This document shows positions 3-20,493 of a stretch of DNA of 24,000 nucleotides, one piece after another. This stretch comes from an uncultured Methylococcaceae bacterium. Lineage in GTDB: Bacteria > Pseudomonadota > Gammaproteobacteria > Methylococcales > Methylococcaceae. The position numbers were made by a program, and so were the translations under genes. The notes under the pieces are model-generated. The model worked only from the letters and a program-made list of their open reading frames with translations. It searched no databases and had not been told where the DNA came from. Position 1 is the first letter of the stretch. Every line of letters starts with the position of its first letter. The stretch lies in contig CAZOTR010000003.1 of the NCBI GenBank assembly GCA_964582755.1, positions 1 through 24,000 of the forward strand, read 5' to 3'.

Positions 3-128
3 GGGCTTCTGGCCTACGAAAGCTTCATGAGCATCGAGCCGGACGCGGCCAACGCGGTGGTACTGAGCCAGGAGGCGTTTGCCCAGGCGGATGATATTCG
101 GCGGCAGATGATGCGGGGATTGCATTGA
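3..128 (+). CDS. 3' end of an unidentified CDS entering from the left edge
   Basis: Frame is open from the window edge: ...GLLAYESFMSIEPDAANAVVLSQEAFAQADDIRRQMMRGLH*, stop TGA at 126-128. High-GC, coding-like composition. No family recognised. Confidence 0.35.
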   Translation, partial: GLLAYESFMSIEPDAANAVVLSQEAFAQADDIRRQMMRGLH

Positions 129-544
129 GATGTTTGGAAGCTGCGATGGCATTCCCCTCGCTGTTTGAGAGCGTTTGCGGCCAAAACCCGCCTTTAGAAG
201 CCCGTCCAAATTTAATCGGCGAACGTCAGGTATGGCCTAGCGGAGCAGTCCTTAGCCTTGGTTGGTTCTGATGCGTTAGTTCGGCAATACCTGTCATTTG
301 CTCTTGCTCGTCAATTGGCTCGAATGTTGGTTTTATGGAAGCAAGCTTGAACATCGTTGTCAGTACATAGCCGACATTTGCCTCTTCATGCAAAATCGCC
401 TTCCTCTTCGACGTAGTGTGGCGGTGCTTGAAGTTGGTTTTGATGAGGTGTTAAAGCTCACGGCTTTCAAGGGGCATAATAGATTTGGCTTATTATAGGG
501 ATGGGCTCTGGCATTGTCGGCGGCCAGGTGGGTCAACACCCAAT

Positions 545-748
545 CTATCCCAAATCAAGCAATACCGCGTCGACCAAGCTTTGGCGCATATAAATGCCGT
601 TGTTGCGCAGTTGTTCGACCAAGGGACGAACCTGCTCTATAAGCCCCGCCTTTTTCGCCCGGCGCAGGATGCCCAAAGTTAGACCTACAGCGATACGGTT
701 CGGTGGTTCAATCCTAAACGGACAGCGAGGACTAAGCTTGATTATTCC
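545..748 (-). pseudogene. 5'-truncated remnant of a DUF3368-type (PIN-like, toxin-like) gene
   Basis: A minus-strand frame without a start codon, closed upstream by an in-frame TGA (749-751), reads ...NRIAVGLTLGILRRAKKAGLIEQVRPLVEQLRNNGIYMRQSLVDAVLLDLG*. The G-T/L-x-G-I-L-x-R-A-K-x-x-G-L-I ... V-x-P-L ... L pattern matches what I recall of the C-terminal half of DUF3368 proteins. The N-terminal half and the usual upstream antitoxin are absent. It is not in the ORF track because it has no start codon. Confidence 0.45.
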
Positions 749-804
749 TCAAGCGATCCCCAATATGTTCTCTGAATTTTAATTGATGCGATGATGGAGT
801 ATTT

Positions 805-1923
805 ATGATGTCAATAGAACCTTTCCGCGTTCTCTGCCTCGACGGCGGAGGCATGCGCGGTATGTATCAAGCCACCTATCTAAAAACCTTTGCAGAGCGT
901 ATTCGCAATACGAGTGGTCGTGAGATTGATCCTGGGCTTGCTTTTGATCTTTTGGTTGGAACAAGCACGGGGGGAATTGTCGCTTGCGCACTCGCTGCTG
1001 GTATTTCACTGAATAACGTTCTGGCACTTTACCAAGAGAGTGGAGCGAAAATTTTTCCACGTCAATATCTTCGGTCTACCCCCGTGCTAGGCACATTAAC
1101 CCGCGCTTTGTTCTCTGGTCTAAAGTCTGGCAACGATGCATTGCATGCCGTATTGTCAACAACTTTCCAGAAGCTAACAATGAAGGAGATTTATGAACAT
1201 CGGGGTATAGGTTTAGCTATCACTGCTGTTGACCTCAATCGCCACGCATCCATCGTCTTTAAGACACCACACATGGAGAGACTTAACGGACGGGATAATA
1301 ACCGATTATTGATAGACGTGTGCATGGCCACTAGCGCAGCCCCAATTCTACGTTCGATTGCGAGGTTGGTAGAGCCGGATAGTAATGGAACGACGGTTGA
1401 TTATGTGGATGGGGGGCTTTGGGCAAACAACCCTGCGGCAGTTGGAATGGTGGAGGCATACGAAATTATAAAACAGCGCGGTGAGGAGAATCGTCCAATT
1501 CATCTCTTTATGCTTGGTACGCTACCGGCCCAAGGTGGTGAAGAAATTGGAAAGAAAAACTTGCATCGTGGTGCTTGGGGTTGGGTAGGAGGAATTAAGG
1601 CCATTAGCACAAGTATGGATGCTCAGGCGCTAGCAAATGACTATATCGCCAATAAAATCGCGCAATTGCGAGAAAACGGAAGCTTCGCTTACCGTTTACC
1701 AGCGCAATGCCCTTCGAACGAATTGCAACGATATTTGGAAAATATGGATGATGCGCGTCCTAAATTTCTAAACGCTCTTGCTAGACAAGCCATATCTGAC
1801 GTTGATTTTGCATGGGCGAATATTAATATCAATAACAAAATAAAAGAGTTTTATGATGCACTTGCTGGTACATCCAATAAAAGTCTCCAACAATCCGAGG
1901 TACAAAAAGATGTCCAGCATTGA
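805..1923 (+). CDS. capV: Patatin-like phospholipase, CBASS effector (CapV-like)
   Basis: 372 aa. Motifs: DGGGMRG oxyanion motif, GTSTGG (GxSxG nucleophile), DGGLWANNP (catalytic Asp). GGAG sits 7 nt upstream of the ATG. First gene of a four-gene overlapping operon in the same order as V. cholerae capV-dncV-cap2-cap3. Confidence 0.9.
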
Positions 1924-2971
1924 TTGCAACAAAGAGATGGGGGGGTATCATTCTAATGAGGTGAACCTGCCCAAGACCGCACAGGACGAGATGCGCAAGC
2001 GGCGTGATAACGGTAGGACTCGCTTGAAAAACGGGCTGCTCGGTGGCGGGCATCCGCTTCCAAAGGAATCCAGTTCACAAGGCTCCTATGCGATGCGTAC
2101 GATGGTTCAGGATGACCAGTGCGACTATGACATCGATGATGGCATCTATTTCGAAAAAGATGACCTGATGGTTGCCGACGGGCGCTACCTATCAGCGAAG
2201 GGCGCTCGCAGTCGAGTTCGTAACGCGCTGAAGGATGAGCGCCTAGCCTATGATGCACAGGTTAAGACCAATTGTGTACGGCAAAAGTATCCGGCTGGTT
2301 ACCACATCGACATTCCGGTATACCGCATTATCCGTTCTACTGATTTTTTTGGAAACAAGGTAGTTGAATACGAACTCGCAAGCGGTGAGGAGTGGATTAA
2401 ATCAGACGCTCGTGCGGTGACTAAATGGTACAACAATGCCATCGGGCAAGAGCTAAAGACAGGCGAGACCGACTACAGCCAGACACGGCGGGTAACCAAG
2501 CTGACAAAGAAGTTTGCTCGCAGCCGCGCCGTCTGGAAAGGGCAAACCACCAGCGGCATCTGTATCTCCAAACTCGTCGTTGAATACATCGTGACAGTTG
2601 CTGAACGCGACGATGATGCCCTAAGAAACACCTGGAAAGCGATAAAAGCTAGGCTGGATTTTACGCTCCAGATTACCCACCCAGTCCTCCAGGGAAAGAA
2701 TTTGGCGGAGAGCGACGATGAGGGCGTCCGCTTCTTCCGTGACCGCCTAGCTGAAGCTCTAAAGAAACTTGAAGTTCTTGATGAACCAGGATGCACACGC
2801 GAAAAAGCTCTGAAGGCTTGGGACAGCGTCTTCAATACAAGCTATTTCAGCGACCGGCTGGGCACGAATCAGGCAGCGGCGAAGTCTTTGCTTCAACCTG
2901 CGGTAGCGGCGATGGGCCTGACTTTCCCCAGCAAGCCAATTGTGCCGAATAAGTCATCGGGCTTTGCCTGA
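1910..2971 (+). CDS. CD-NTase (cGAS/DncV-like nucleotidyltransferase), CBASS signal synthase
   Basis: Start chosen at the internal ATG 1910 ([10 protein letters not shown]...), which overlaps the capV stop by 14 nt. Motifs: QGSYAMRT (G-S), DYDIDDG (DxD), YHIDIPVY (third Asp), the Pol-beta NTase triad in CD-NTase spacing. The C-terminus is ...KSSGFA. Confidence 0.85.
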
Positions 2972-4716
2972 TGAGGTGGGCATTGAGCGATCCGGTGCGA
3001 TTTCTTAATGAACGCGCCGAACTTGACCGCCTTGAAGACGAAGTTGATTGGTTGGTTACCGCTTGGCGAATAGACGCGGACGGAATGATCGAAGTCGATT
3101 TCGACCTGATTGTTCATGGCCGTACCTACGCGGGCCGAATGACCTATCCCGATGTGTTTCCTAATTCACCGCCTTATATTCGTCCTCGAAATACCTCTGA
3201 GCGATGGACAGTACATCAGTATGGGGCGGGAGGGACGCTGTGCCTGCAATGGCGTGCGGACAATTGGCAAACCCATGTCACTGGGGCAGATATTGTCCGA
3301 AGCACTTTCGACTTGCTGAATACCGAACAACACCCAGAGCGGCCAGATGTTGTTCCGTCTGCTCATCGTTTGACAGAAGGCCAGGAGATGAGGAGCGAGG
3401 AGTATCGTTTCGTTGCTACCAATGGGTTTATTCAAGCTCTTATTGTTCTTCCTCTGCAATCCAGATCGACGCTAAAAACGAATACGGTTCTCAACTTAAC
3501 AGCGACAGTTACGTTTGTATCCGAGATTTCGATAGCCGACAGCGCGATGCAGGCGATCCCCGACTTACCATCCGGCATTTCCAAATACCTCCCTTTATTT
3601 GCATGGAAAGGTGAGGGGTGGTTATTCAGGATTGAGTTTGTCGCCCCTGAAGAGAGCATTTTGTCGATAGATTACTTGCTGCGTCTGCTCTCGAACTCTG
3701 GTTTTCGCACAGACGATATTCTGGTAAAGGAAGAGGGTACCAACAAGTACAAGGAAAAGGTGGTAATACTGCTGGGGTCAGAGTTAACCTCGCTCCGTGT
3801 TTTCTTGATCGTGTCCAGCGAACAACTGGTGTTGCGCGAATACAGGGTAATCATGCCTTCGGATTTAGATGCTCGGCTACCCAAAGAATGTGAGCAGCTT
3901 TCCAGAGTTCGAGTCGGCATCGTTGGACTCGGCTCTATAGGCAGCAAAGTCGCTGTCTCACTGGCAAGATCAGGTGTGCGGCGATTCTTATTGGTGGATG
4001 ATGACTATCTGGTACCGGGCAATCTGGTTCGCCACGAGCTTTCTTGGGCTTTCGTCGGCGTACACAAGGTAAATGCTGTCCGCGATGCATTGAGATTGGT
4101 GGCAGCCGGGGTGGATGTCGATGCAAGAAGTCATCGGATAGCCGGTCAGGAGTCTGCGTTAAACTCTGCCGCTACATTGAAGGATCTCTCGAATTGTGAT
4201 TTGTTGATTGATGCAACCGCTAACCCAGAAGTTTTCCTACGCATGGCAGCCATCGCAAAGGCAAACAAAAAACCCCTGTTCTGGGGCGAGTTGTTTGCCA
4301 GCGGGTATGGCGGATTGATTGCGCGCGCACGACCCGATCTCGACCCCAATCCGCTCGCCGTTCGATCCGCCATTCATGCCCACCTAGCTACTTTACCGTC
4401 GGCACCTTTTCAACAGGCTGGTGGATATGATGTTGAGCAGGAGCGGTCGTTAATAGCGTACGACAGTGAGGTAGGCAATATTGCAGCATCATTGACACGT
4501 TTTGCCATTGATGCTGCTTTACAACGGAATCCGAGCCAGTTTCCTTATCCTGTATACCTCATTGGGTTGCGTCAAGAATGGATATTTTCCCAACCTTTTG
4601 ATACACAGCCCTTAGATGCACAGGGAGACGGCTGGGATGAGGTAGCCTACCCCGTAGCGAACGAGGATCGGGATGCTGTAGTAAAAGTACTATTGGATTT
4701 ATATGAGCAGAGGTAG
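2971..4716 (+). CDS. cap2: Cap2: E2-like / E1-like (ThiF/MoeB Rossmann) fusion, type II CBASS accessory
   Basis: 581 aa. TGATG start/stop overlap with the CD-NTase gene. N-terminal E2-like region contains GGTLCLQW. Central VGIVGLGSIGSKVAVSLARSGVRRFLLVDDDYLVPGNLVRH is a nucleotide-binding E1 adenylation fold. Confidence 0.85.
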   Translation: MRWALSDPVRFLNERAELDRLEDEVDWLVTAWRIDADGMIEVDFDLIVHGRTYAGRMTYPDVFPNSPPYIRPRNTSERWTVHQYGAGGTLCLQWRADNWQTHVTGADIVRSTFDLLNTEQHPERPDVVPSAHRLTEGQEMRSEEYRFVATNGFIQALIVLPLQSRSTLKTNTVLNLTATVTFVSEISIADSAMQAIPDLPSGISKYLPLFAWKGEGWLFRIEFVAPEESILSIDYLLRLLSNSGFRTDDILVKEEGTNKYKEKVVILLGSELTSLRVFLIVSSEQLVLREYRVIMPSDLDARLPKECEQLSRVRVGIVGLGSIGSKVAVSLARSGVRRFLLVDDDYLVPGNLVRHELSWAFVGVHKVNAVRDALRLVAAGVDVDARSHRIAGQESALNSAATLKDLSNCDLLIDATANPEVFLRMAAIAKANKKPLFWGELFASGYGGLIARARPDLDPNPLAVRSAIHAHLATLPSAPFQQAGGYDVEQERSLIAYDSEVGNIAASLTRFAIDAALQRNPSQFPYPVYLIGLRQEWIFSQPFDTQPLDAQGDGWDEVAYPVANEDRDAVVKVLLDLYEQR

Positions 4717-5182
4717 AGTGTTGAATTTAATTCTGCCTCCTGATGTAGTTAATACTCTTTCAGTCGCGCTCCAAAAAGCAGGGCGGAATGAAATTGGTGG
4801 TATCTTGATGGCCCAGCATGTTGGCCTGAATGAGTTCAAAGTCACGGAGATCACGGTGCATCGGCGTGGTGGGATTTCTTCATTTCTACGGCGTATAGAA
4901 GATGCCATTGGAAATCTACGTCTATTTTTTCACCGAACAGATCACGACTACCAGAGATTCAATTACTTGGGCGAATGGCACTCGCATCCGTTGTTCGATC
5001 CCACTCCTAGTACAATGGATGATATGTCTATGCGAGAGATTGTTCAGGATACATCGGTCGGCGCTAACTTTGCGGTACTGCTTATTGTAAAGCTGAATGC
5101 TAGTGGGCAATTGATTGGTACCGCTCACACCTACCTTCCTGATGGGAAGAGAGCGGGTTCGGCAATCATCTTCGGTGGTTAA
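4703..5182 (+). CDS. cap3: Cap3: JAB/JAMM (MPN+) isopeptidase, type II CBASS accessory
   Basis: 159 aa. Overlaps the cap2 end by 14 nt. Motifs: EIGGIL (Glu) and GEWHSHPLFDPTPSTMD (HxH-x7-S-xx-D JAMM motif). Confidence 0.85.
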   Translation: MSRGRVLNLILPPDVVNTLSVALQKAGRNEIGGILMAQHVGLNEFKVTEITVHRRGGISSFLRRIEDAIGNLRLFFHRTDHDYQRFNYLGEWHSHPLFDPTPSTMDDMSMREIVQDTSVGANFAVLLIVKLNASGQLIGTAHTYLPDGKRAGSAIIFGG

Positions 5183-5324
5183 AAGTAGCATTAAATGAGG
5201 TTGAGGTTGAGGTTGAGCTGCTTTCCAATATCCGAGCCTGTTCTCAACGGAATTCAGAAAATGAAACCGAACCACTCCGAAAAACGTAGACCCGCTTTGA
5301 GATTCTAAGCGCTTCCCGCACTTT

Positions 5325-5597
5325 TTACTCCACCAGCAACACGGCCAAATTGGAGTCGGTGTCCAATTTGTGGATACATTCCATAATCAATTGCGCCCGC
5401 ATCAGATTCATCCCCACCGCCTTCCGGTCTTCTGGGTCTAGCGCTTTGAGCCAATCCCGAACCGGTTTAGCCCCGGACGATGTGCGGTAGAACACCGGTG
5501 GGATTTTTCGTTTTCCTCCATGCTGCGCCTTTTCCGCCGTAGTGTACGTTAAAAAGTTCACGCCGCTCAAAGCTGTTTTCCCTTTCAGAGTAGCCAA
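5325..5597 (-). pseudogene. Truncated RelE/ParE-superfamily (phage Gp49/HigB-like) toxin remnant
   Basis: The core ...IPPVFYRTSSGAKPVRDWLKALDPEDRKAVGMNLMRAQL resembles the N-terminal ~45 aa of Gp49-like toxins (xFYxxxxGxxPVxxFLxxLdxxxrakv). Family resemblance is lost after about aa 70 (about 5388), and the ORF ends 20 codons later. GGAGGA sits 8 nt upstream of an ATC codon (5502-5504) where an ATG would be expected. No partner antitoxin ORF lies downstream. Confidence 0.45.
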
Positions 5598-5718
5598 TTC
5601 CCTGCCGCAATGCCGTCATTGCCGGCAAAAATCCTGCCGAAGCCAGACGCGCCCCCTGTCACTGCCGTGCAGTGACAGGGGGCGGCTGCGGCAACCTGCG
5701 CGGCTTCCGGGGCAAAAT

Positions 5719-5747
5719 TTGACATGACGGCCAGATGATGGCAGGAT
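5719..5747 (+). promoter_or_regulatory. Possible sigma70-type promoter upstream of orphan repeat copy A
   Basis: TTGACA (5719-5724), a 17-nt spacer ending in TGg, then CAGGAT (5742-5747; weak -10, 3/6 match). This would start transcription a few nt before the element at 5763. Sequence-only guess. Confidence 0.25.
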
Positions 5748-5762
5748 TTTGACCGCTCAACC

Positions 5763-5965
5763 GTGGCGGCTGCGTCCTCAGCCGCACCCTTTGCCGCCGT
5801 GTGCCTACACTTCCGGCGGCGGGCCTTCTGGCCCCGTAGGCGTTCCCCAGGCTCCGGCCTGTTCACTTCGGGATCGACGATCCCTCTGGTTCTATCCTAG
5901 CCAGCAGTCCCCTTTCCAAGGGAAGGTTTCCGGCACACCCACGTTGCGGTTTTCCCGCAACGCAC
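5763..5965 (+). repeat. Structured ICE leader element, copy A (orphan; 5' two-thirds conserved, 3' part diverged)
   Basis: gtggcggctgcgtcctcagccgcaccctttgccgccgtgtgcctacacttccggcggcgg ... cacttcgggatcgacgatccctct aligns with copies B, D, E and F. No T-tract, no conserved RBS and no adjacent gene. Confidence 0.75.
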
Positions 5966-6417
5966 CCATCCAGTTGGTTCCTGCCAACGTCCTTCCAGTG
6001 GCTGAAGCGGCGCGTCTTTGTTTGCCCGCGAAAGCGACTTCTCCCTCGCCCTGATGGCACGGCTTGCCGTGTCCTTAATGGCCGCTTCCAACTTGCCAGC
6101 GTGGTATCGCAATCCGCCACCAAGGCTCCCTCTAAATCGCTTGATACTGCGGCAACGCGGTTTTAGGCACCACGCACAGCCAGCCAAGCCGTCGGGCTTG
6201 CTGTGAGGAATAATACCTACGACGCTTCGACGATTGTTTGCAACAGCAGAACACGCCGAACCGCATATGCGGGCCTGTTTTATCGGATTGACAGCACGCC
6301 TTTTCCCTTCGGGGGTCTCGATTCCATCGAGTCGGCATTAACACTTACCCTGCGACAAATCCGCGAACAAATTACTGGATTATCCTGAATTATTATTCCT
6401 GATGTTTATGAGGCCGT

Positions 6418-7296
6418 ATGGACGATCTGCAATGGGAATTGAAAAAACTGACTAACCAACACCGTGAGGATTCCATCGGAACACAGGTGGCGCGTCACCA
6501 AGTGCTGGATCTGATGGCCCGCCAATTGAAGGAAATGGGCTATCGAAACATGAAGGCTATTTCCCTGAAGCCTAAGCATGTCGAAGCCTTGGTGAAGCGC
6601 TGGCAAGCAGAGGAATTATCCACAGGAACCTTGAAGAACCGCCTTTCACATTTGCGATGGTGGGCGGAAAAGATCGGCAGGCCATCCCTTATCCCCAATG
6701 ACAATGGGAAACTGGGCATTGAGAACCGGGTTTATGTGAAACCAGAGGGAAAACAAATCAGCCTAGACCCGGAGAAACTGGCGCAAATCAAAGATGCCCA
6801 TTTGCGCTTGAGTTTGGAGATGCAGGCACAGTTCGGATTGCGCCGTGAGGAGGCGATGAAATTCCAACCGGCGTATGCGGTTCGTGACAACCATATCCAT
6901 TTGAAGCCGTCTTGGACGAAAGGCGGAAGGCCACGCGATATACCTATTCGTAATGAAGCCCAGCGCGAATTGCTAGGGCGAGTCCGCCAGCTTGCGGAAA
7001 ATGGTTCGTTGATTCCGGCGGGGCGTTCTTATGTCTTCCAGAAGAACCTCTATGAGCGGGAAACCAAGAAAGCCGGTATCGCCGAAGGCGACCGGAAAGC
7101 CCACGGTCTGCGACACGGGTATGCCCAAGAACGGTATTTGGAATTGACCGGATGGAAATCGCCCCATGCCGGAGGCCCAAGGCGCGGGGAACTGACGCCC
7201 GAACAGCGGGAAGCCGACCTTGCCGCCAGGCTTATTATCAGCCAGGAAATGGGCCACAACCGCGAAGAAGTCACGGCGGTTTATCTGGGGCGCTAG
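6418..7296 (+). CDS. Tyrosine recombinase / phage-integrase-family protein (small ICE-associated type)
   Basis: 292 aa. Catalytic-type residues are in order: LRREEAMKF (Arg), HGLRHGYAQ (HxxR), GHNREEVTAVYLGR (His ... Tyr nucleophile). It resembles what I recall as the Phage_int_SAM_2 + Integrase_1 architecture. Confidence 0.75.
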   Translation: MDDLQWELKKLTNQHREDSIGTQVARHQVLDLMARQLKEMGYRNMKAISLKPKHVEALVKRWQAEELSTGTLKNRLSHLRWWAEKIGRPSLIPNDNGKLGIENRVYVKPEGKQISLDPEKLAQIKDAHLRLSLEMQAQFGLRREEAMKFQPAYAVRDNHIHLKPSWTKGGRPRDIPIRNEAQRELLGRVRQLAENGSLIPAGRSYVFQKNLYERETKKAGIAEGDRKAHGLRHGYAQERYLELTGWKSPHAGGPRRGELTPEQREADLAARLIISQEMGHNREEVTAVYLGR

Positions 7297-7432
7297 AAAT
7301 GCTTAACCAACAAAACTAATTCGATGGGTAGCGAAAACCCTTGCAAAAGGCTGACAAGGTTTTCGCTGGATAGCGTATCCCTGCGGCAGGATAATCCAGC
7401 CTGCCATTTGATTTGACCACAAGGCGAACGAC

Positions 7433-8776
7433 ATGCGTGTCCTGCTGGGTTCCAACGCTTACCTGAAGCGCACCGAGAACCGGGATGTCCCGGTCGTCTG
7501 GGACAGCCGCACGGCGATCAATCCGCACGTGTTGGTGATGGGCGCGTCCGGGGCTGGCAAGACCTGGAATCTGCGGCGGATGATCCAGGCTATGGCGAAA
7601 ACTGCCGATGGCCCGGTGCGCATCTATGTGTTGGATGTCCACGGCGACATTGATTTGGCCGGTGCGTCCACCGTGAAGTTTTCCGAAGCCACGGCCTATG
7701 GCCATAATCCATTGGCAGTCAGTCCAGACCGTGATGGCGGTGGCGTCCGCCGACAGATTCAGTCCTTCATTGCGGCGCTGAACCGGACTTCCCGGCAATT
7801 GGGAACTCGGCAAGAGGCGGTATTACGCGCGCTGCTGACCGACCTCTACGCCGCCAATGGATTCTACGAGGACAAGCCGGATAGCTGGCGGCTGGATGAC
7901 GGGATAGCGCGGAAATACCCGAAGAAATATCCGACTCTGCTGGATGCCGCCCGCTTCTCGGCGGCCAAGCTCAGGGCGCTATATCTTGGGGCCGACGCCA
8001 AAGCGGTGGCCGCATTGGAGCAAGTCAACGCGAAGGCGAGGTCGATATACGCCAGGAACAAGGCGATGGGGCAGATACGGCAGACCTTGGGGAACGCCCA
8101 GGCCGATAAGCCTCCCGCCGATCCCGAATTGGACAAACTGAAAGAAGCGGCGATAGCGGCCTATAGCGCTGCAATCCAAGGCATAGCCACCGGGCGCGAG
8201 TTGGACGACCTGATCCGCTACGACTCCAAGGACGTGCTGCGTAGTGTGGTGGAGCGATTGGAAAGCCTGAATGCCATCGGCATCTTCCGGCCGGACGAAC
8301 CGCCGTTCGACCCCAAGATCCCGGTGTGGCGTTATGACATCCGCTCCCTCGCCTCGGACGAGAAAAAGCTGTTCGTCTATTTCCGGCTCGAACAGATATT
8401 CCGGCAGGCTGCCCTGCGCGGGGTTCAGGGTCGGGTATCGGAAGTGGTCGTATTGGACGAGGCGCATTTGTTTTTCACCGACGAGGCGGAGAACCCGTTG
8501 AATGTCGTCGCCAAGGAAGCGAGGAAGTTTGGCTTGGGGCTGGTCTGCGCCAGCCAATCCCCCACGCATTTCAGCGAGGATTTCCTCGGCAACGTCGCCA
8601 CCAAGATGCTGCTGGGCATCGACGAGATGTATTGGGACGGCGCGGTGCGCAAGCTCAAGATCGACCCGAAGATCCTCCACTACGTCACCCCTAGGCGCAG
8701 CCTGGCCGTGCAGATCAAAACCGGAACAGAGAACCGGGCGCGGTTCGTCGGTGTCGATTTGTCCTCTGCGCGATGA
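7433..8776 (+). CDS. HerA/FtsK-like (DUF87-type) P-loop ATPase
   Basis: 447 aa. Walker A: VLVMGASGAGKTWN. Walker B: VVVLDEAHLFF. Followed by AKEARKFGLGLVCASQSP, typical of HerA/VirB4/FtsK-type ATPases. Confidence 0.7.
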   Translation: MRVLLGSNAYLKRTENRDVPVVWDSRTAINPHVLVMGASGAGKTWNLRRMIQAMAKTADGPVRIYVLDVHGDIDLAGASTVKFSEATAYGHNPLAVSPDRDGGGVRRQIQSFIAALNRTSRQLGTRQEAVLRALLTDLYAANGFYEDKPDSWRLDDGIARKYPKKYPTLLDAARFSAAKLRALYLGADAKAVAALEQVNAKARSIYARNKAMGQIRQTLGNAQADKPPADPELDKLKEAAIAAYSAAIQGIATGRELDDLIRYDSKDVLRSVVERLESLNAIGIFRPDEPPFDPKIPVWRYDIRSLASDEKKLFVYFRLEQIFRQAALRGVQGRVSEVVVLDEAHLFFTDEAENPLNVVAKEARKFGLGLVCASQSPTHFSEDFLGNVATKMLLGIDEMYWDGAVRKLKIDPKILHYVTPRRSLAVQIKTGTENRARFVGVDLSSAR

Positions 8777-8859
8777 AATTCAGAAAGAGGGCAGGGGAGG
8801 GAACACGTTTTGTCCCGAACCCATTGCACAATCATCAAACCTGACCGAAAGGTATTCAC

Positions 8860-9510
8860 ATGTTCAAACGATTTTCCTTACTGCAGCCATTGGCCCTGTT
8901 TGCCTTCTTGTCCGGCTTGGCATTTATTCCTGTCCAGGCTGGGGCGGATGAACTCATGCAAAGCAATCTGGGAACGTCGCCGGCATGGAAGTCATGGGAT
9001 CGGATGACCGTCACCGCGCCCCGATCACTGTCCAAGACCAAAACCCTCCAGCTTCCCGATTTCCTGCTGAAGATATGGGCGAATGAAATTGCCGCGAATG
9101 ACGATAAATACTTGAAGGACGGCAACGGACAACTCATTAAAAATGGACATGCGCCTGCCGAAGCGCTGTATTCGGTGTACCACGATGGCGATCTGACGGT
9201 AATCGTCAGCCTGTTGAACACCGCCAAGTATTGCCAGGACGGCCCAAATGATTCCGCCAGCACCCAGATTCACTCCACCTGCCCCGTCCGCGTGACCGTG
9301 ACGCGGGGCGGTGAGTCCAAGAGCCTTAATTATCCCGAGGCGTGTTTCCTGGATATTAGCTACGGCAATCCGCCCGGTGGCCCAGACCCTCTCACCAACG
9401 CATCGCTGACCCGGTATGACCGGCAGGCAGGCGTGGTCGAGCTGGTGGCGATCCGCGACAACCGGTCCCTGCCCGAGTGCGCAAAACAGTTGAAGGTTCC
9501 GCCCCTGTGA
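8860..9510 (+). CDS. Secreted protein of unknown function
   Basis: 216 aa. N-terminal signal peptide MFKRFSLLQPLALFAFLSGLAFIPVQA|GA. No family recognised. Confidence 0.6.
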   Translation: MFKRFSLLQPLALFAFLSGLAFIPVQAGADELMQSNLGTSPAWKSWDRMTVTAPRSLSKTKTLQLPDFLLKIWANEIAANDDKYLKDGNGQLIKNGHAPAEALYSVYHDGDLTVIVSLLNTAKYCQDGPNDSASTQIHSTCPVRVTVTRGGESKSLNYPEACFLDISYGNPPGGPDPLTNASLTRYDRQAGVVELVAIRDNRSLPECAKQLKVPPL

Positions 9511-10379
9511 TTGGACTGTTCCGTTCCCTACTGCTGATGCTGGCGCTGTTTTCAGCGGCACCGGCTTCGGCCCAACAGTTGGGGCCGAAAGTGGTAGTGA
9601 CTGCCGCACAGGTTGCCGCCGCCATCAGTAATTCCCCGTTGAGTCCCAGCCTCCAGGCTTATGCCGCCGATATTGGCAAGCTGGCGATCAACGTCGAATC
9701 GGGCGGCAATCTGGGTGTTTATAACGGAACCTGCTGCACAGGCGTGTTGCAGGTGAACAAAGGCGGCTTGGCGAAGTATTGCGATTGTACCTCGGAGGAA
9801 TACGCCAACATGTCCCTCCAACAGCAGGTCGATGTGTGGGCAAAACTCACTAACGCCAATGCCAATAACTCGACCGTTCAGGGTTTGATGGGAATGGGTA
9901 GTTTTGGCGAGAAGCCGGTGACCGGGGCGATGGTGCTGTCGTGCATCCAGATCGGGCCGGGTAATTGCGCCAAGACGATTAAGGCGGGGACTTGCGCGAC
10001 CAGCGCCGGATCGGACGGCAACGGCAACAACTTCTGCGACTTCGCGGCCAAGATCAATGGCGCGAGCGGTTCCAGTCCCGTGGCCATAACCGATATCAAC
10101 ACGCCGTCGGGCGCGGCCCCGCCTTTGCTGCCGAGCGCGAATTACCAGTATCCTTCCACCGAGGACGCTTTTCTTACCGGGGCTGGGGTGGATATGTCCC
10201 AGTCGAAAGACCTGGTGTTGTCGGCGTTGTCGGTGGCGATGTTCCTGTGGACTGCCTGGGTGGCGCTGGCCCAGTACGGCTCGTGGCGGCAAGGCCGCAT
10301 CGACTGGATGACCCTGCAAACCAATATCATCGGCTCGACCGTCTTGACGCTGTTGGTTCTCGGCCTGACGCTCGCCTGA
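9507..10379 (+). CDS. Exported, C-terminally membrane-anchored protein, possibly lysozyme/SLT-like
   Basis: Start moved to GTG 9507, which forms a GTGA overlap with the upstream stop. This gives the signal peptide VIGLFRSLLLMLALFSAAPASA|QQ. The segment INVESGGNLGVYNGTCCTGVLQV is reminiscent of the ES...G..Q lytic-transglycosylase motif (weak). It is Cys-rich and has two C-terminal hydrophobic helices. Confidence 0.5.
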   Translation: MIGLFRSLLLMLALFSAAPASAQQLGPKVVVTAAQVAAAISNSPLSPSLQAYAADIGKLAINVESGGNLGVYNGTCCTGVLQVNKGGLAKYCDCTSEEYANMSLQQQVDVWAKLTNANANNSTVQGLMGMGSFGEKPVTGAMVLSCIQIGPGNCAKTIKAGTCATSAGSDGNGNNFCDFAAKINGASGSSPVAITDINTPSGAAPPLLPSANYQYPSTEDAFLTGAGVDMSQSKDLVLSALSVAMFLWTAWVALAQYGSWRQGRIDWMTLQTNIIGSTVLTLLVLGLTLA

Positions 10380-10388
10380 TTTCCAAGC

Positions 10389-10598
10389 GTGGCGGCTGCG
10401 TTTTCAGCCGTACCCTTTGCCGCCGTGTGCCTACGCTTCCGGCGGCGGATTCCCCAGGGAATCCTGTAGGCGTCACAGGCCGCAAGGCCTTTCCACTTCG
10501 GGATCGCCGATCCCTTCTTTTCACCACACCCGACGGGGAAACACAGCCCCGCCGGGGGCTGCGTTTCCCCGTTTTTTCATTCAAAGCGGAGAAACACC
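10389..10598 (+). repeat. Structured ICE leader element, copy B (full, short form)
   Basis: Six successive hairpins, including gccgccg/cggcggc, ggattcc/ggaatcc, aggcc-gcaa-ggcct and gggatc/gatccc. The last is the nested terminal hairpin cggggaaac...gtttccccg + T6, then GGAGAAACACC-ATG of the DUF3577 gene. Confidence 0.85.
10534..10577 (+). terminator. Intrinsic-terminator-like hairpin + T6 inside copy B, 21 nt upstream of the ATG
   Basis: cggggaaac-acagccccgccgggggctgc-gtttccccg followed by tttttt. GC-rich 9-bp outer stem with an inner 7-bp stem. Confidence 0.5.
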
Positions 10599-11051
10599 AT
10601 GAGCGACAACACAAATACCCCATCCAATTATTTTGACTTGCATGTGACCGGCCTGGGCTATCTGAACCGTGTCCGGGAGGTCAAGGTTCCGCGCGGCAAG
10701 CCATTTTTGGCCGCGAGCATCGCGGCCCTGCACGGCGCGTCGGACTCGGTTGAAAAGACTTGGTTCGACGTGCGCGTCTCCGGGCAGGAGGCGCAGAAGG
10801 TGGTCCGGGATCTGATGCCCGACGCCGAAGCCGGCAAATCGGTTTTGGTCGGCTTCAAACTGGGCGACCTGACTGCGGAAACCTTTGTTTACGAGAAAGG
10901 CCCGAAGGCCGGACAAACCGGCGTCAGCCTGAAAGCCCGGCTGCTACGCATCGCCTGGGCCAAGGTTGACGGCAAGACGGTCTACACGGCCCCGAAAGAC
11001 GCCCAGCCCGCCGACGACAGGCAAGGCAGCGCCTTGCCCGAAGCGGCCTGA
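10599..11051 (+). CDS. DUF3577-family SSB-like ICE protein (STY4534-type)
   Basis: 150 aa. YFDLHVTGLGYLNRVREVKVPRGKPFLAASIAALHG ... VSLKARLLRIAWAKVDG matches my memory of the DUF3577/STY4534 family conserved in SPI-7/PAPI-1/ICEclc-type elements. Confidence 0.75.
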   Translation: MSDNTNTPSNYFDLHVTGLGYLNRVREVKVPRGKPFLAASIAALHGASDSVEKTWFDVRVSGQEAQKVVRDLMPDAEAGKSVLVGFKLGDLTAETFVYEKGPKAGQTGVSLKARLLRIAWAKVDGKTVYTAPKDAQPADDRQGSALPEAA

Positions 11052-11180
11052 CCGTTGGCTCCATCTGCCGCCCGCCAGAAACCGCAAGGTTTTCTGGTAG
11101 GCGGCTCCTATAGCCAATTCAATCGCCCAATTCTTCAATCCAAATTTTCAAGCAAGTGTTGTAAACTTTGATCTTCACTC

Positions 11181-11245
11181 GTGGCGACTGCGACTCAGCC
11201 GCACCCTTTGCCTAGGCTTTCCAGGCGTGTCTGCGCTTCCCTGGA
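11181..11245 (+). repeat. Structured ICE leader element, copy C (partial: first two hairpins only)
   Basis: gtggcgactgcgactcagccgcaccctttgcc is near-identical to copies E and F. The second hairpin keeps the loop cgtgtctgcgcttc, but its stem is replaced by ccagg/cctgg. Confidence 0.6.
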
Positions 11246-11474
11246 CGCGATAATCTATCTTCCGTCGATCAACGTAATCTTCGGATGGTCGCGAGCAGAC
11301 GTCCCAAACCGCCCATTGACATGACAGCGGTTCTAACCAGCGTCGGTATGTGAAAAGCCCGCCGCGTTTTCCAATTCGTCCGGGGATTTAAGCGTCCCCG
11401 GACACCCCACAACCCTGACAGGGCACTTGCCCGGTCATGGGAAGTGCCTTGCGTTTTCAGCAAGAGGCAACCCC

Positions 11475-12077
11475 ATGATCAACTTATCAGGAAATCTTTA
11501 CATACGTTCGGTCCACGGCCGCAACGGCGATTTCTCGGTCGGCCGGCTGGTCACCGACATTGGCGAGTTCGTCCTGCGCGACGAGTTCCTTAGGCAGTAC
11601 GGCGAGGGCCATTACCAAGGCGAGTTCGGCATTGCCGAAATCTTCCCGGCCAGCTATGTGGCTGGAGGCCGCATGGTGATCGAAATCCGCGCCACTTTGG
11701 CTTCATTGGCCTTGGCGGCGATTGACGACCTGCCCGGCGGGCAAGCGGAATCCGCAGTATCGGCGGAATCTGCTCTGATTGGCCCGGAAGCCGGGGAAGC
11801 TACGCCCCCATCCAAAGCGACATCCAGGCGCAACAAGCCGGGTGTGGCGAAACCTCCAAACGATGGACAGCCTGCCCAAAACGAGATATTTCCCCCCACG
11901 GGAGATGCCTGCGACGACGGGGCCGACGCTCATTTGTTCGGTGCCTTGTGGCCGCTGGGCGACACCGTGAGGCTGGACACATCGGTCAGCCGGGCCTTGT
12001 TCCGCCAGCAAAAAGAGCGGATGAAGGCGCTGGGGTACACGTTCCAAGCGTCCGGCCAACTGTGGGTTCGGACGTGA
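11475..12077 (+). CDS. DUF3275-family ICE protein
   Basis: Start chosen at ATG 11475 (MINLSGNLYIRSVHGRNGDFSVGRLVTDIGEFVLRDE...YVAGGRMVIEIRA). This N-terminal pattern is what I recall for DUF3275. The upstream part of the track ORF (from 11427) has no RBS support. Confidence 0.65.
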   Translation: MINLSGNLYIRSVHGRNGDFSVGRLVTDIGEFVLRDEFLRQYGEGHYQGEFGIAEIFPASYVAGGRMVIEIRATLASLALAAIDDLPGGQAESAVSAESALIGPEAGEATPPSKATSRRNKPGVAKPPNDGQPAQNEIFPPTGDACDDGADAHLFGALWPLGDTVRLDTSVSRALFRQQKERMKALGYTFQASGQLWVRT

Positions 12078-12127
12078 AATTCCTGGCGCAAGGCTTTGCC
12101 TTGCGCCCGGCAACCGGATTTCCAAGC

Positions 12128-12341
12128 GTGGCGGCTGCGTTTCCAGCCGCACCCTTTGCCGCCGTGTGCCTACGCTGCCGGCGGCGGATTCCCCAAGGAA
12201 TCCTGTAGGCGTCTTAAGGCCTCAAGGCCTTTTTCACTTAGGGATCGCCGATCCCGTCTTTTCACCACACCCAGCGGGAGAACGCATCCCCGCGCCGGGT
12301 CTGCGTTTCTCCGTTTTTTTCATTCCATTCGGAGAAACGCC
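12128..12341 (+). repeat. Structured ICE leader element, copy D (full, short form)
   Basis: Collinear with copy B, including the shared 5' flank gatttccaagc. Terminal hairpin + T7, then GGAGAAACGCC-ATG. Confidence 0.85.
12275..12320 (+). terminator. Intrinsic-terminator-like hairpin + T7 inside copy D, 21 nt upstream of the ATG
   Basis: cgggagaacgca...tgcgtttctccg followed by ttttttt. Confidence 0.5.
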
Positions 12342-13253
12342 ATGAGCAACAAGCACGAAATCACTTATACCCTCGGCTACCTGCACCGGGTCACGGTGGG
12401 GGTTGAAGCCGACAACGGGGAGGCGGCGCTGCGCATCGCCCAACAAGCTTTTGATAACGGTTTGATCTGGGACGACACCCCGGCCATGCCGCTGTTGTAC
12501 GACGATTTTGAGGAGAACGGCGACGGTTTGGACTGGGAAGTCCAGGCGGTCGAGGCGTTTAGCCAGCAAGATCCTTCCGTCAAGGTTCTACAGGCCCAGC
12601 GGAAGGCGTTGGAAGCCTGCCGGGCACTGGTTGCCGCCTATGCAGCCGGCGAAGAGGGCGACGGTTCCGTGTCTTGGGAAGACCTGGACTCCGTGCATGG
12701 GCTTGCCCGGCAAGCCCTGGCTTTGCTGGACGATTCCGCGATGGCATCCGCCCGCGCCACCGGCCCCAAAGCTAGGAAGTTGGCGGAAGCGGATTCGGCG
12801 CGCCCAAGCGATGCGTCTTCACTGCCCACGGTGGCCGATGTCCCACTGCGCCGCATCGTCGAGAGACTGGCGCAGTTGAAGATGTGGGATTTCGACGAAC
12901 GCGACGCCGATGACGACGGAAGCCTGGCCGCCAAGGAAATCGACGACGAAACGGATTGGCTGGACAGCCACATTTTGCTGATGACTTTCATCCGCGATGC
13001 CAGGAGGGCATTGCAGTCCGCCAAGCCTCCGCGTCTGGCCGTTGTGCTGGAGGTCGGAATCGTCCATGCGGTGGTGTCGGACAACGCCGTTGATCTGGCG
13101 GTGGCCGTCATCGACTACGACATCGAAGGTGCCGATGACGATGAATTGTCTTCGGTTCCGCAGGGCGACGGCACCTGCGTGGATGCCGTGGTGGGTTGCT
13201 GGAATGCGACCCCGGCGGCCATCGACCTTGACGCGGTGTTTGCCGCTTCATGA
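12342..13253 (+). CDS. Acidic hypothetical ICE protein
   Basis: Start chosen at ATG 12342 (MSNKHEITYTLGYLHRV...), directly after the conserved GGAGAAACGCC. The 82 codons upstream in the track ORF lie in repeat copy D. Asp/Glu clearly outnumber Lys/Arg by eye. No family recognised. Confidence 0.6.
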   Translation: MSNKHEITYTLGYLHRVTVGVEADNGEAALRIAQQAFDNGLIWDDTPAMPLLYDDFEENGDGLDWEVQAVEAFSQQDPSVKVLQAQRKALEACRALVAAYAAGEEGDGSVSWEDLDSVHGLARQALALLDDSAMASARATGPKARKLAEADSARPSDASSLPTVADVPLRRIVERLAQLKMWDFDERDADDDGSLAAKEIDDETDWLDSHILLMTFIRDARRALQSAKPPRLAVVLEVGIVHAVVSDNAVDLAVAVIDYDIEGADDDELSSVPQGDGTCVDAVVGCWNATPAAIDLDAVFAAS

Positions 13254-13296
13254 AGACCCAGCGTTTGACTGAAACCCATGCCCGGAGGAGGAAACC

Positions 13297-14382
13297 ATGA
13301 ACGCCCGTAAACTCGAAGCAGGCCCAGTCCGCGAGGCGGTGCGGGGGCGCTGGGTGCCGGTGCTGCAAGCATTGGCACCCGAATTGGACGCGGCGCTGGC
13401 TAAACCCGGCAGGCATGTGGCTTGCCCGATGCATGGCGGTCGCGATGGGTTCCGCCTGTTCAAAGATGCGGAAACTTCCGGTGGCGGGATCTGCAACACC
13501 TGCGGCGCGTTTCCCGACGGCTTCAGCCTGTTGCAGTGGCTCAAGGGCTGGAATTTTCCGCAGGCGCTCGGGGCGGTGGATGCAGCCATCGGCGGCGTGG
13601 CTTTGACCCGCGTGGCTTTGTCAGAACCGGCGTTGCCGGCCAAGACTCAACCCCGCAAGACTGCCTCCGAAGACGGCCAAATCCGTCGGCGTCTGGCGGA
13701 GACCTGGGCGCAATCCGAGCATTGGCGGGATGCCCTGTCCCAACCGCTGCGGGACTACCTGGCCCATCGCGGTTTGGACACCGGCATTTTGCAAGGCGTG
13801 GAGGCCATCCGCTTCCATCCGGGCTTGCGCTACCACGACGAGGACGGCCACTACGGCGGCACGTTTCCGGTCATGCTGGCTCGGGTGTCCGACGCGCACG
13901 GCAAACCGGTGACACTCCACCGCACTTACCTGACCGAAGCGGGCAGGAAAGCGTCGGTGGAAAACCCGAAGCGAATGATGCCGGTGCCATCGGATCAACC
14001 GGTCTTGGGCGGCGCTATTCGCTTAGGCGTTGCCGAGCCGGTCATCGATTTGGCCGAAGGCATCGAAACCGCCTTGGCCGTGCGCCAGGCAACCGGGCTT
14101 CCGGTGTGGAGCGCGGTCAGCGCCACGCTGTTGGCGGGCTTCGATCCACCGCCCGGAACCCACAAGCTGCGGATCTGGTGCGACCGGGACCGCAAGGGCG
14201 TAGGCGAGGAGGCGGCGCAGAAACTGGCGGAGCGTCTCGCTGAGAGGGGCATTCCAACCGAGTTGCTGATTCCGCCCGAGGCGATGCTTCGGGATGGCAA
14301 AAGCGTTGACTGGTTGGATGTCCTCAACGAGTACGGTTCTGCGGTTTTCCCGCTGTCGCCAAATCGGTGGGCGGCGGCATAA
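13297..14382 (+). CDS. Primase-like protein: P4-alpha-type zinc ribbon + Toprim domain
   Basis: 361 aa. RBS GGAGGAGGA. Zn-binding pattern HVACPMHGG ... ICNTCG. Toprim Glu in IDLAEGIETALAV and an acidic cluster in WCDRDRKGVGEEAAQ. No helicase domain is attached. Confidence 0.75.
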   Translation: MNARKLEAGPVREAVRGRWVPVLQALAPELDAALAKPGRHVACPMHGGRDGFRLFKDAETSGGGICNTCGAFPDGFSLLQWLKGWNFPQALGAVDAAIGGVALTRVALSEPALPAKTQPRKTASEDGQIRRRLAETWAQSEHWRDALSQPLRDYLAHRGLDTGILQGVEAIRFHPGLRYHDEDGHYGGTFPVMLARVSDAHGKPVTLHRTYLTEAGRKASVENPKRMMPVPSDQPVLGGAIRLGVAEPVIDLAEGIETALAVRQATGLPVWSAVSATLLAGFDPPPGTHKLRIWCDRDRKGVGEEAAQKLAERLAERGIPTELLIPPEAMLRDGKSVDWLDVLNEYGSAVFPLSPNRWAAA

Positions 14383-14429
14383 GGGCAGGTTCTGACTTGG
14401 CCTGAGAGTGTTGTTTTGTTGTTCGACCC

Positions 14430-14488
14430 ATCCGGGGAAATTCCCCGGACTGGGGGGTTCTCCGGACTTTAACCTGAGGAGAAACCCC
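14430..14488 (+). repeat. Structured ICE leader element, copy H (terminal-hairpin module only, no T-tract)
   Basis: ccggggaaattccccggactggggggttctccgg aligns with the terminal module of copy F (ccggggaaacctttccccggcgggacaggtttctccgg). It is followed by GAGGAGAAACCCC-ATG. Confidence 0.55.
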
Positions 14489-15565
14489 ATGCAGATAGAG
14501 ATAGTAAAACTTTTCCGGGTGGCGGATGTGTTCGGCCTTTACGCCGACGCCTTCGTCCAAGACCGGCAGTCCGGCCAGTTGATCTTCGCCTCCTTCTGGG
14601 GGCGTGACACGACTATCCAGGAACTGCTGGCGCGGCTTACTTTGTCGTCATCGGAAGGCGGTCTGGCCTCGCTGGACTTCAACCCGTGCGACAACCCGGA
14701 CAACGGGCTGAACGTGTCCATCGGCGATCCGAACCGGCTCGACAAGTTGACTGGCAGGATGCCCGCCGACAATTTGTTCGGCGCGGTGGCGCAGTTGTGG
14801 CTCTATGACCGCAAGGCCGTGGAACCCGATCATGCCAGCCGTCGGGCTTTGTTGCTGACCGGCGAAGACGTGTCCGACGGGCAATGCGGCAGCGCACCTG
14901 AGGACGAAAAGGTCTGGGCGCTGTTCAAGACGGTATCCCATCTGCCATTGCTCGACCACTGGCGGCAGGTATTGATTTCGGTCGCATTGTCCTGTGGCTG
15001 GCTGCGGATACACCCAGGCTTCCAGGTCAACGCGATTGAGTTGGATCTGGGCGTGGAGGACTACGAAGCCACGGTCAGCGAGTTGATCCGGCAAGGGCGC
15101 TTGACCCTCGAAGCGGGTGAGCCTCAAGCCGCACGGGAAGCCGATCCATTGCCCACGGTAATGTCGGCGTCAACCGATGAGAATCCGGTAACCACAGGGC
15201 GTTTGTCGGCGGAGCAGCTTGAGGATGGCTTGGCGCAATTCTACGGAACCCAACAATGGTTTCCGCATTGGCTCGTCAAGAACATGCTCTACACGGAAGG
15301 CGTCCAGTTTTTCGCCGAACAAGGCGGGGAGCAGGGGGCTTTCTGGTTTTTGGATATTGTGGCGACGGAATATTTTCAACTGCAACGGCAGGAGCCGTTC
15401 ATGCTGATCAAGCTGACCTCCAAGGACAAAAAAGCCACCGTCCAGGTGGAAAACGGCAATGGCCGGGTGTTGAAGGAAAAGAAGATCGAATACACGGATC
15501 TTCAGCCCGGCGTCTGGAAGTTTTACCTGACGGATGATGTTTTGCTGTTGCCCGGCGAGTATTGA
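14489..15565 (+). CDS. Hypothetical ICE protein with a DUF6876-like C-terminal domain
   Basis: Start chosen at ATG 14489 (MQIEIVKLF...) after the RBS GAGGAGA. The C-terminal ...YTEGVQFFAEQGGEQGAFWFLDIVATEYF...GVWKFYLTDDVLLLPGEY resembles the DUF6876 family as I recall it. Confidence 0.6.
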   Translation: MQIEIVKLFRVADVFGLYADAFVQDRQSGQLIFASFWGRDTTIQELLARLTLSSSEGGLASLDFNPCDNPDNGLNVSIGDPNRLDKLTGRMPADNLFGAVAQLWLYDRKAVEPDHASRRALLLTGEDVSDGQCGSAPEDEKVWALFKTVSHLPLLDHWRQVLISVALSCGWLRIHPGFQVNAIELDLGVEDYEATVSELIRQGRLTLEAGEPQAAREADPLPTVMSASTDENPVTTGRLSAEQLEDGLAQFYGTQQWFPHWLVKNMLYTEGVQFFAEQGGEQGAFWFLDIVATEYFQLQRQEPFMLIKLTSKDKKATVQVENGNGRVLKEKKIEYTDLQPGVWKFYLTDDVLLLPGEY

Positions 15566-15583
15566 TATTCGCCCCAGGCGGCA

Positions 15584-16269: not shown

Positions 16270-16372
16270 ATGCGTAGGCCCAGCCTGCGCGTCATGGGAG
16301 AAATCCGGCCAGCCGGTTCGTGACTGGCGGGCTGCTTCGCTGACTTAAGGATTGGCCTCCAATTCTGATAAA

Positions 16373-20490: not shown

Positions 20491-20493
20491 GCC

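Follow-up and report, generated by a model that had tools for sequence, protein, structure and literature searches.

The type II systems for antiphage signaling based on cyclic oligonucleotides (CBASS) of Vibrio cholerae and Escherichia coli TW11681 combine a patatin effector (CapV), a nucleotidyltransferase resembling cGAS and DncV (CD-NTase) with a GS/DxD/D active site and a small terminal residue, an E2-E1 fusion protein (Cap2) and a JAMM protease (Cap3). In the published Cap2 scheme, adenylation is followed by a thioester on a cysteine in the E1 crossover loop, then by a thioester on the E2 cysteine and finally by transfer to the target; the characterized E1 cysteine of Enterobacter cloacae is C548, and in E. 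coli it is C513 or C493/C496. Known E1s are reported to share a crossover-loop cysteine, with the exception of the Bub E1s, whose loop has a single invariant residue, a tyrosine; this tyrosine forms an oxyester with the ubiquitin-like protein (Ubl~Tyr) and is required for conjugation (PMC11601596). Here we analyze a stretch of 24,000 nt (the window; positions 1 to 24,000 of contig CAZOTR010000003.1, assembly GCA_964582755.1) from an uncultured Methylococcaceae bacterium, which contains a four-gene operon with the same genes in the same order as those of V. cholerae and E. coli TW11681. We read the region as an intact type II CBASS with a phospholipase effector, carried as exchangeable cargo of a mobile element, and put the probability of this reading at roughly 0.88. 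The system as a whole is of an ordinary, known type and is unusual only in its Cap2, which has no E1 cysteine.

A four-gene operon with type II CBASS architecture

Profile searches of the four proteins drew on Pfam, PADLOC and NCBIfam; for Cap2 and the CD-NTase, fold searches were added. PADLOC gave strong matches throughout: CapV to a phospholipase effector (PDLC00758, 313 bits, 5.6e-94), the CD-NTase to a cyclase (PDLC00783, 457 bits, 7.1e-138), Cap2 to an E1-E2 model spanning residues 1-575 (PDLC00855, 612 bits, 4.1e-184) and Cap3 to a JAB model (PDLC00893, 194 bits, 2.6e-58). The corresponding Pfam matches were Patatin (2.5e-24), DncV-like_NTFase (PF21654, 2.3e-19), ThiF (6.5e-22) together with a weak UQ_con (5e-4), and Prok-JAB (PF14464, 5.7e-9). 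The best PDB matches of CapV were the cGAMP-activated CapV structures 9WN1, 9KH6 and 8ZR9 (1e-27); Cap3 found no PDB match by sequence. A preliminary description, made from the sequence alone, had called the region a complete type II CBASS and had proposed profile searches of this kind, and its assignment is borne out, the four families being recognized by Pfam, PADLOC and NCBIfam and two of them by fold as well.

The motifs that it had listed were likewise located in each protein. In CapV, DGGGMRG / GTSTGG / DGG correspond to the oxyanion motif at residues 13-19, to GTSTG at 52-56 with the nucleophile Ser54 and to DGG at 202-204 with Asp202. The GS ... DIDD ... HID triad of the CD-NTase lies at G58-S59, D74-I-D76 and HID 132-134 (D134), and the HSHP...S..D protease motif of Cap3 reads as a canonical HxHx7Sx2D, with E30, HSH at 93-95 (H93, H95), S103 and D106. 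The proposed fusion of an E2-like domain with an E1 Rossmann domain agrees both with the extent of the E1-E2 profile match and with the best Foldseek hit, a full-length E. cloacae Cap2.

All four open reading frames (ORFs) are co-directional (Table 1), with successive overlaps of 14 nt, 1 nt (TGATG) and 14 nt, and the coordinates and overlaps given earlier were reproduced. The mechanical ORF list begins the CD-NTase at its first ATG, 1853, but we place the start at 1910, because 36 homologues of 350-358 amino acids (aa) all begin with MSxIDCNKEM; a GAGG lies 8 nt upstream of this start. The start of Cap3 is ambiguous: ATG 4703 yields the 14-nt overlap and has a weak ribosome-binding site, and TTG 4721, with AGAGG at a distance of 7 nt upstream, is the start of the 153-aa protein predicted by the metagenome gene callers. 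We favor the overlapping ATG, since the Cap2/Cap3 overlaps in homologous operons are mostly 20-26 nt and homologues in tblastn align from residue 1 as counted from ATG 4703. At least four independent metagenome assemblies encode all four proteins with 100% identity, which rules out an artefact of assembly. A megablast search of 700-5400 against plasmids and E. coli genomes returned no near-identical DNA. The operon has a GC content of 49.5%, against 59.9% in the block resembling an integrative and conjugative element (ICE) at 6418-21990, and its GC content at third codon positions is 40-59%, against 61-78% downstream. The 804 nt upstream are also low in GC (about 51%), so that the earlier remark that the operon lies below its flanks in GC holds for the downstream flank and not for the upstream one.

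The best PDB match of the CD-NTase was 7LJO, the Bacteroides fragilis CdnB of clade B04, both by sequence (1e-13) and by fold (2e-7, 24% identity). Deinococcus DwCdnB (8YSN) was a strong match by sequence and by fold, ranking fourth by fold, and DncV was the second match by sequence (E 1.7e-4) and the fifth by fold. With the NCBIfam cGAS equivalog NF041078 the protein scored 107.6 bits, below the cut-off of 150. Judged by these matches, the cyclase is not a DncV orthologue, and we tentatively class it as clade-B-like, nearer to clade B than to clade A; the capV-dncV-cap2-cap3 architecture of the preliminary description thus stands as a gene order, but its second gene is not dncV. The relationship to the nearest solved CD-NTases, 7LJO and 8YSN, is distant. 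Clade B is heterogeneous, and the product of the cyclase therefore cannot be inferred: CdnB02 enzymes make 2',3'-cGAMP in type I systems, in operons with Cap14, so that neither their product nor their partners are transferable to this operon. The accession numbers of the cluster members carried no clade labels for the cyclase, and a literature search found no publication pairing CdnB with Cap2.

The catalytic residues of the CD-NTase are invariant in 37 homologues with identities as low as 66%, and the tail, which ends in ...NKSSGFA, is nearly so. Residues 319-353 are predicted to be disordered (predicted local distance difference test score, pLDDT, < 50) in an AlphaFold model with a pLDDT of 66. 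More distant, plasmid-borne members of the clade have cyclases ending in ...KPGGFA or ...KPRGFA, and the tail of the E. cloacae cyclase is ...KTGRFA (Ledvina et al. preprint). Operons with full Cap2 and Cap3 have a cyclase that ends in a conserved Gly or Ala, and the terminal Ala is natural in the E. cloacae cyclase (Jenson et al., PMC10097602). The ...SSGFA terminus, which ends in Ala and not in Gly as in V. cholerae and E. coli TW11681, fits a Cap2 substrate, as the preliminary description had suggested, in that it is conserved among the homologues and agrees with the Gly/Ala rule. Two homologues (P0025 and P0108) carry one extra residue beyond the conserved terminal Ala (...GFAG and ...GFAS); if real, these would need trimming to expose the Ala for Cap2, resembling the processing of pro-ubiquitin.

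We infer every biochemical step from the homologous systems of V. cholerae, E. coli and E. cloacae. The CD-NTase would make a cyclic di- or oligonucleotide on infection, using G58-S59 and D74/D76/D134. This signal would activate the patatin CapV (Ser54/Asp202), leading to membrane damage and a stop of phage production. Cap2 would adenylate the C-terminal Ala353 of the cyclase, at the end of its disordered, family-invariant tail, pass the cyclase to the E2 cysteine C91 and ligate it to target amines, thereby priming it, and the JAMM protease Cap3 would strip these conjugates. At the E1 step of Cap2, either the E2 cysteine would attack the acyl-adenylate directly or the loop residue Y486 would carry an intermediate.

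The same four-gene cassette recurs in several other settings, namely beside a P4-type integrase in an Enterobacter island, beside a serine recombinase in a Xanthomonadales metagenome-assembled genome (MAG), in a site flanked by insertion sequences (IS) in Brenneria and on 92 Klebsiella plasmid records. The genes and their order, a GFA-type cyclase tail and a Cap2 of the same tyrosine type are shared by the cassettes of Enterobacter, Xanthomonadales, Brenneria and the conjugative plasmids of Klebsiella. Protein identity is 56-71% where the cassette sits in a chromosomal island, and the Cap2 of the Klebsiella plasmids is 54% identical. The cassettes differ in host and in carrier, being borne by plasmids, by an island of P4-like type, by one with a serine recombinase and at a site flanked by IS. 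That the Brenneria CBASS might lie next to the integrase-like gene of that genome was considered and rejected, the two being 2.8 Mb apart. The finding of a CBASS operon on a mobile element in itself adds little, such cassettes being common, with close relatives on Klebsiella plasmids.

The Cap2 crossover loop

Cap2 has only three cysteines, C91, C307 and C409, and none after residue 409. C91 is the E2 cysteine, in GGTLCL (GGxLCL in the clade), so that the residue which the preliminary description had named for mutation is present. The adenylation site comprises the P-loop GLGSIG (319-324), R354, K366 and D414. A full-library HMMER search gave 441 clusters (50% identity) at E < 1e-30, and 142 full-length representatives with 31-59% identity to the window protein were aligned. 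C91 is kept in 142/142 representatives; G319, G321, G324, N351, R354 and K366 are invariant, and D343, D345 and D414 are conserved in at least 90%. Cysteine is absent from positions 474-497 in 139 of the 142 sequences, and no alignment column after residue 410 exceeds 34% cysteine. Tyr486, by contrast, is found in 142/142, with no Phe or Trp, and is the sole invariant residue of a loop in which its neighbors vary freely. In the Cap2 model (pLDDT 71), residues 478-499 form a loop of low confidence that connects helices 461-473 and 498-516, at the position of the crossover loop of ThiF-type E1s. The two remaining cysteines were considered as displaced E1 cysteines and rejected: C307 is not conserved, and C409, although 83% conserved, lies in a Rossmann strand.

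Cap2 thus has the E2 cysteine and the adenylation site of the characterized Cap2s and lacks their E1 crossover-loop cysteine. With no cysteine after residue 409, an E1 thioester on a crossover-loop cysteine would therefore not form, and, on the evidence of the sequence, one step, the E1 step, must be non-canonical. Of the textbook conjugation chemistry, C91 and the adenylation residues are in place, and the E1-thioester step cannot proceed in its published form. The clade spans the window operon, those of the Klebsiella plasmids and others that have a nuclease or a SAVED effector. Plasmid operons of Acinetobacter (nuclease effector), Mesorhizobium (SAVED) and Gloeocapsa (CapV), whose Cap2 proteins show 31-38% identity, have the E2 cysteine and the loop tyrosine and no loop cysteine.

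The best structural match of Cap2, over its whole length, is the Cap2 of the E. cloacae CdnD02-Cap2-Cap3-Cap4 system (7TO3, 7TQD, 7TSQ), which Foldseek ranked first (7TQD/7TO3, E 2.5e-18, 13-14% identity, about 590 columns). Each of the two is a ThiF-type E1 that is homodimeric and carries a fused E2, and both systems have a cyclase tail ending in ...FA; the E. cloacae system differs in its effector, Cap4, and in the clade of its cyclase, D. By sequence, the match is confined to the Rossmann core: in phmmer, two profile searches and hhalign, the alignment of the two proteins ends at the Rossmann half, past which similarity is undetectable. The E. cloacae loop carries C548 in GIGCWHP and has no tyrosine, and in the gene fragment P0412 (residues 425-600 of an E. 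cloacae-type Cap2) C548 lies in GIGCWHPVFPARADDV, again in a loop without tyrosine. When the two proteins are force-aligned with MAFFT, the helix after the loop is the only part anchored; C548 and Y486 then share the loop, a few residues apart, an equivalence that is approximate. The second-best fold match was BubCD of Citrobacter. BubCD and E. coli BubBD have a cysteine-less loop in which tyrosine is likewise the sole invariant residue (PMC11601596), and BubBD is also an E2-E1 fusion. The Bub E2, however, uses a serine, whereas the E2 cysteine is invariant here, and the Bub substrate and peptidase are the beta-grasp Ubl BubA and BubE, in place of a cyclase (by homology) and a JAB protease. 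The operon contains no Ubl or DUF6527 gene, and only the tyrosine-type E1 loop is common to the two.

We give about even odds to a direct transfer, in which no covalent E1 intermediate forms, the E2 cysteine C91 attacks the cyclase-AMP and Y486 merely shapes or gates the loop. Such a transfer has a counterpart in E. cloacae, where the C548A variant retains conjugation in vitro, the E2 cysteine taking the place of the E1 cysteine (Ledvina et al. preprint), and the fused E2 and E1 are held side by side in the known structure. The lack of any cysteine after residue 409, and a Phe at the position aligned to Y486 in a related non-CBASS E1, are in line with it as well. Mutation of the E1 cysteine in V. 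cholerae, however, abolishes defense in vivo, which argues that such a bypass is not generally sufficient, and the complete conservation of Tyr without a single Phe suggests that the hydroxyl matters. That hydroxyl could have a catalytic role if Tyr486 replaced the E1 cysteine and a cyclase~Tyr oxyester were handed to C91, making the protein a hybrid of canonical Cap2 and Bub; we regard this relay as possible but doubtful. It would account for an invariant Tyr at 31-59% identity in an otherwise variable loop, predicted to be flexible and with a cysteine in only 3/142 sequences, and for the retention of Tyr in plasmid CBASS operons with other effectors. The Bub E1s, which need their invariant crossover-loop tyrosine for conjugation, and the rank of BubCD directly after Cap2 by fold speak for the relay too, as does the position of E. 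cloacae C548 within a few residues of Y486 when counted from the end of the Rossmann alignment. Against it stand the failure of the sequence alignment to cysteine-type Cap2s past the Rossmann half, which leaves the positional equivalence approximate, and the related non-CBASS E1, which has its cysteine about 10 residues upstream of that Phe and suggests that the aromatic residue may be structural; a Tyr-to-Cys relay is, moreover, without precedent.

It is possible, but less likely than not, that this large Cap2 clade, having lost the E1 cysteine, uses its invariant loop Tyr instead, so that the cyclase would be activated by way of a Tyr oxyester passed on to a Cys thioester. If true, the relay would stand, in its mechanism, between the canonical E1s of the Cap2/ATG7 type and a Bub pathway that does without cysteine, and if the tyrosine is catalytic, oxyester chemistry would be much commoner in bacterial ubiquitin-like conjugation than is known and would extend into cGAS-like immunity. 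A Cap2 clade without an E1 cysteine contrasts with the literature, in which all non-Bub E1s are cysteine enzymes, and this is the chief point for specialists. Our literature search found no paper connecting Cap2 with a crossover-loop tyrosine.

One weak plasmid match in the Cap2 search (positions 3073-4849 of locus L091, on the Sinorhizobium plasmid pSS05631a) proved to be a non-CBASS protein, a 391-aa ThiF-family E1 with a crossover-loop cysteine, and was rejected as a CBASS Cap2 and kept as a cysteine-bearing comparison. It has a small upstream ORF and adjoins a RES/Xre toxin-antitoxin pair, and the locus may be another ubiquitin-like conjugation module.

A variable cargo slot beside ICE-like genes

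Backbone homology to two related elements, L006 and L005, covers window positions 3-195 and resumes at 5390 (L006) or 5597 (L005). Between these flanks, L006 carries an ars operon with arsA, arsC, ACR3, TauE and HMA genes (its positions 750-8972), and L005 carries dehydrogenase, transporter, GST, antitoxin-like and DinB-type genes (969-9177). Since shared flanks enclose different genes, the region between them in the window is a defined variable slot, a clean case of a defense cassette, an arsenic-resistance operon and other genes interchanging between the same flanks. Just upstream of capV, the slot also contains the 3' remnant of a DUF3368 (PIN-like toxin) gene, which suggests that other cargo occupied it before. 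Neither direct nor inverted repeats were found at the slot borders, and no tRNA was found in the window.

The first conserved backbone gene past the slot encodes an integrase-like protein with 174 relatives in genome contigs, the closest in an uncultured gammaproteobacterial MAG (94%) and in a MAG of Ca. Methylumidiphilus (Methylococcales; 82%), the two relatives in which the slot was compared. The backbone block that follows contains a HerA/FtsK-like ATPase, a DUF3262/TIGR03758-like protein (35 bits with TIGR03758, below its cut-off of 42.7), DUF3275, a primase, DUF6876, DUF7673, DUF932, a DUF6094 methyltransferase and HATPase_c_3, and past the window the 86-kb parent contig goes on to encode the reverse transcriptase of a group II intron, then RadC and an SNF2 helicase. 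We take the TIGR037xx and STY45xx families to be markers of ICEs of the PFGI-1 / SPI-7 / pKLC102 type. The locus resembles these elements in having the STY4534 family, a DUF3262/TIGR03758-like protein, DUF3275, DUF932, primase, RadC and SNF2 helicase in one co-directional block. It differs from them in that neither conjugation genes nor a relaxase nor attachment (att) sites were seen within 31 kb: no type IV secretion system (T4SS), relaxase, coupling protein, terminal integrase or att site was found in the window and the next 7 kb.

The proposal that the operon is ICE cargo is thus upheld as to a variable slot and ICE marker families, and it stops short at the T4SS, relaxase and att sites; the cargo slot is demonstrated, whereas the ICE identity, as read from marker families, is half shown. 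The operon might instead adjoin the element from outside, occupy its very end, or belong to a non-conjugative island, with a chromosomal left flank. We consider this unlikely, though it agrees with the lack of a T4SS, relaxase, coupling protein, att repeat or tRNA, with a left-flank ORF to which the profile searches assigned no family, with the TIGR03758 score and with the metagenome contigs, all of which break shortly upstream of the window start; on the other side, the left flank is conserved alongside the right-hand backbone in two MAG lineages, the STY4534-family protein passes its curated cut-off, and DUF3275, DUF932, primase, RadC and SNF2 helicase form a typical ICE accessory block. For the system itself, the preferred reading as an intact type II CBASS is carried by the genes and their order, the intact catalytic and adenylation residues and the conserved cyclase tail, together with the cargo slot and the presence of the cassette on other mobile elements. 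Several results weigh against it. The NCBIfam equivalog cut-offs were missed by the cyclase (cGAS, 107.6 against 150), by Cap3 (28.5 against 200, and 27.6 against the 127.6 of the V. cholerae VC0181 family) and, by 0.2 bits, by CapV (199.8 against 200 for CBASS_lipase, NF041079, the cGAMP-activated phospholipase equivalog), and the CBASS proteins are therefore diverged members of their families. The structure models are only moderate (pLDDT 71 for Cap2 and 66 for the CD-NTase), and a scan for promoters and terminators gave counts at or below shuffled expectation, with nothing bracketing the operon. In addition, a 2026 preprint reports that a CapV-type CBASS of Pseudomonas aeruginosa limits phage without killing the cell, so that the "abortive infection" of the preliminary description may not describe the outcome. 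The absence of a clear promoter, the foreign GC content and the adjoining toxin-gene remnant could also suggest a decayed or silent relic, intact in sequence but non-functional in defense; this is very improbable, given four full-length ORFs with all catalytic residues intact, identical proteins across independent samples and preserved overlapping starts.

Table 1. Positions of the operon, the Cap2 loop and the surrounding mobile-element features in the window
Feature	Position	Strand	Length	Basis
capV, patatin-like phospholipase effector	805-1923	+	372 aa	Pfam, PADLOC, NCBIfam and PDB matches
CD-NTase (cGAS/DncV-like cyclase, tentatively clade-B-like)	1910-2971	+	353 aa	Pfam, PADLOC, PDB sequence and fold matches
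cap2, E2 - linker - E1 (ThiF-type adenylation) fusion	2971-4716	+	581 aa	PADLOC, Pfam, Foldseek
cap3, JAB/JAMM metalloprotease	4703-5182 (alternative start TTG 4721)	+	159 aa	Pfam, PADLOC
Cap2 crossover loop, invariant Tyr486, no cysteine	about residues 474-497 of Cap2			142-sequence alignment and model
Variable cargo slot (CBASS operon and toxin-gene remnant)	198-5389		5.2 kb	Backbone homology to L005 and L006
DUF3368 (PIN-like toxin) 3' remnant	545-676	-	43 aa	Pfam PF11848 on called gene
Integrase-like (Phage_int_SAM_2 + Integrase_1)	6418-7296	+		Pfam
ICE-like backbone block	7433-21000	+		Pfam and NCBIfam
STY4534-family ICE replication protein	10599-11051	+		NF040584, 164 bits (cut-off 160)

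At the right border of the slot, a 90-aa ORF on the minus strand (5325-5597), which gave no family match, contains the L006 homology breakpoint (about 5390), and its 3' end varies between elements. Further to the right, a perfect 16-bp stem with a 3-nt loop (5650-5684) is 91% conserved in L005 and L006. At the other side, the contigs with the operon (L001, L002, L003 and L004) all end about 30-90 nt upstream of window position 1, which points to repeat or strain-variable sequence breaking the assemblies.

Other features of the window

Within the backbone, the HerA-like ATPase (7433-8776) and the DUF6094 methyltransferase and HATPase_c_3 proteins (17439-20490) gave weak, partial PADLOC MADS matches (mad8 61 bits, mad2 67 bits), and the same proteins showed a weak match to a restriction-enzyme model. 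As PADLOC and NCBIfam returned only such weak and partial MADS-like matches, a defense system made up of these backbone genes was rejected; the genes could represent an orphan methylase or anti-restriction functions, or else a defense module that has diverged.

A dispersed structured repeat of about 140-230 nt occurs in five copies on the plus strand (5749-5887, 10375-10610, 12114-12352, 15642-15866 and 21339-21564), the last four of which close with a GGAGAA ribosome-binding site plus the ATG of whichever backbone gene follows. The repeat had no Rfam matches. Its consensus folds into several hairpins, with compensatory changes in 6/37 pairs, and one copy is conserved in L005 and L006. The repeat may serve as a regulatory leader present in several copies, or as an element of the transfer-proximal region that resembles a single-strand promoter. 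Toward the right end of the window, a group II intron at 21995-22145 (Rfam RF02012, 118 bits) is followed by its reverse-transcriptase/maturase/HNH ORF, which runs from about 22591 past the window end and measures 568 aa in the parent contig.

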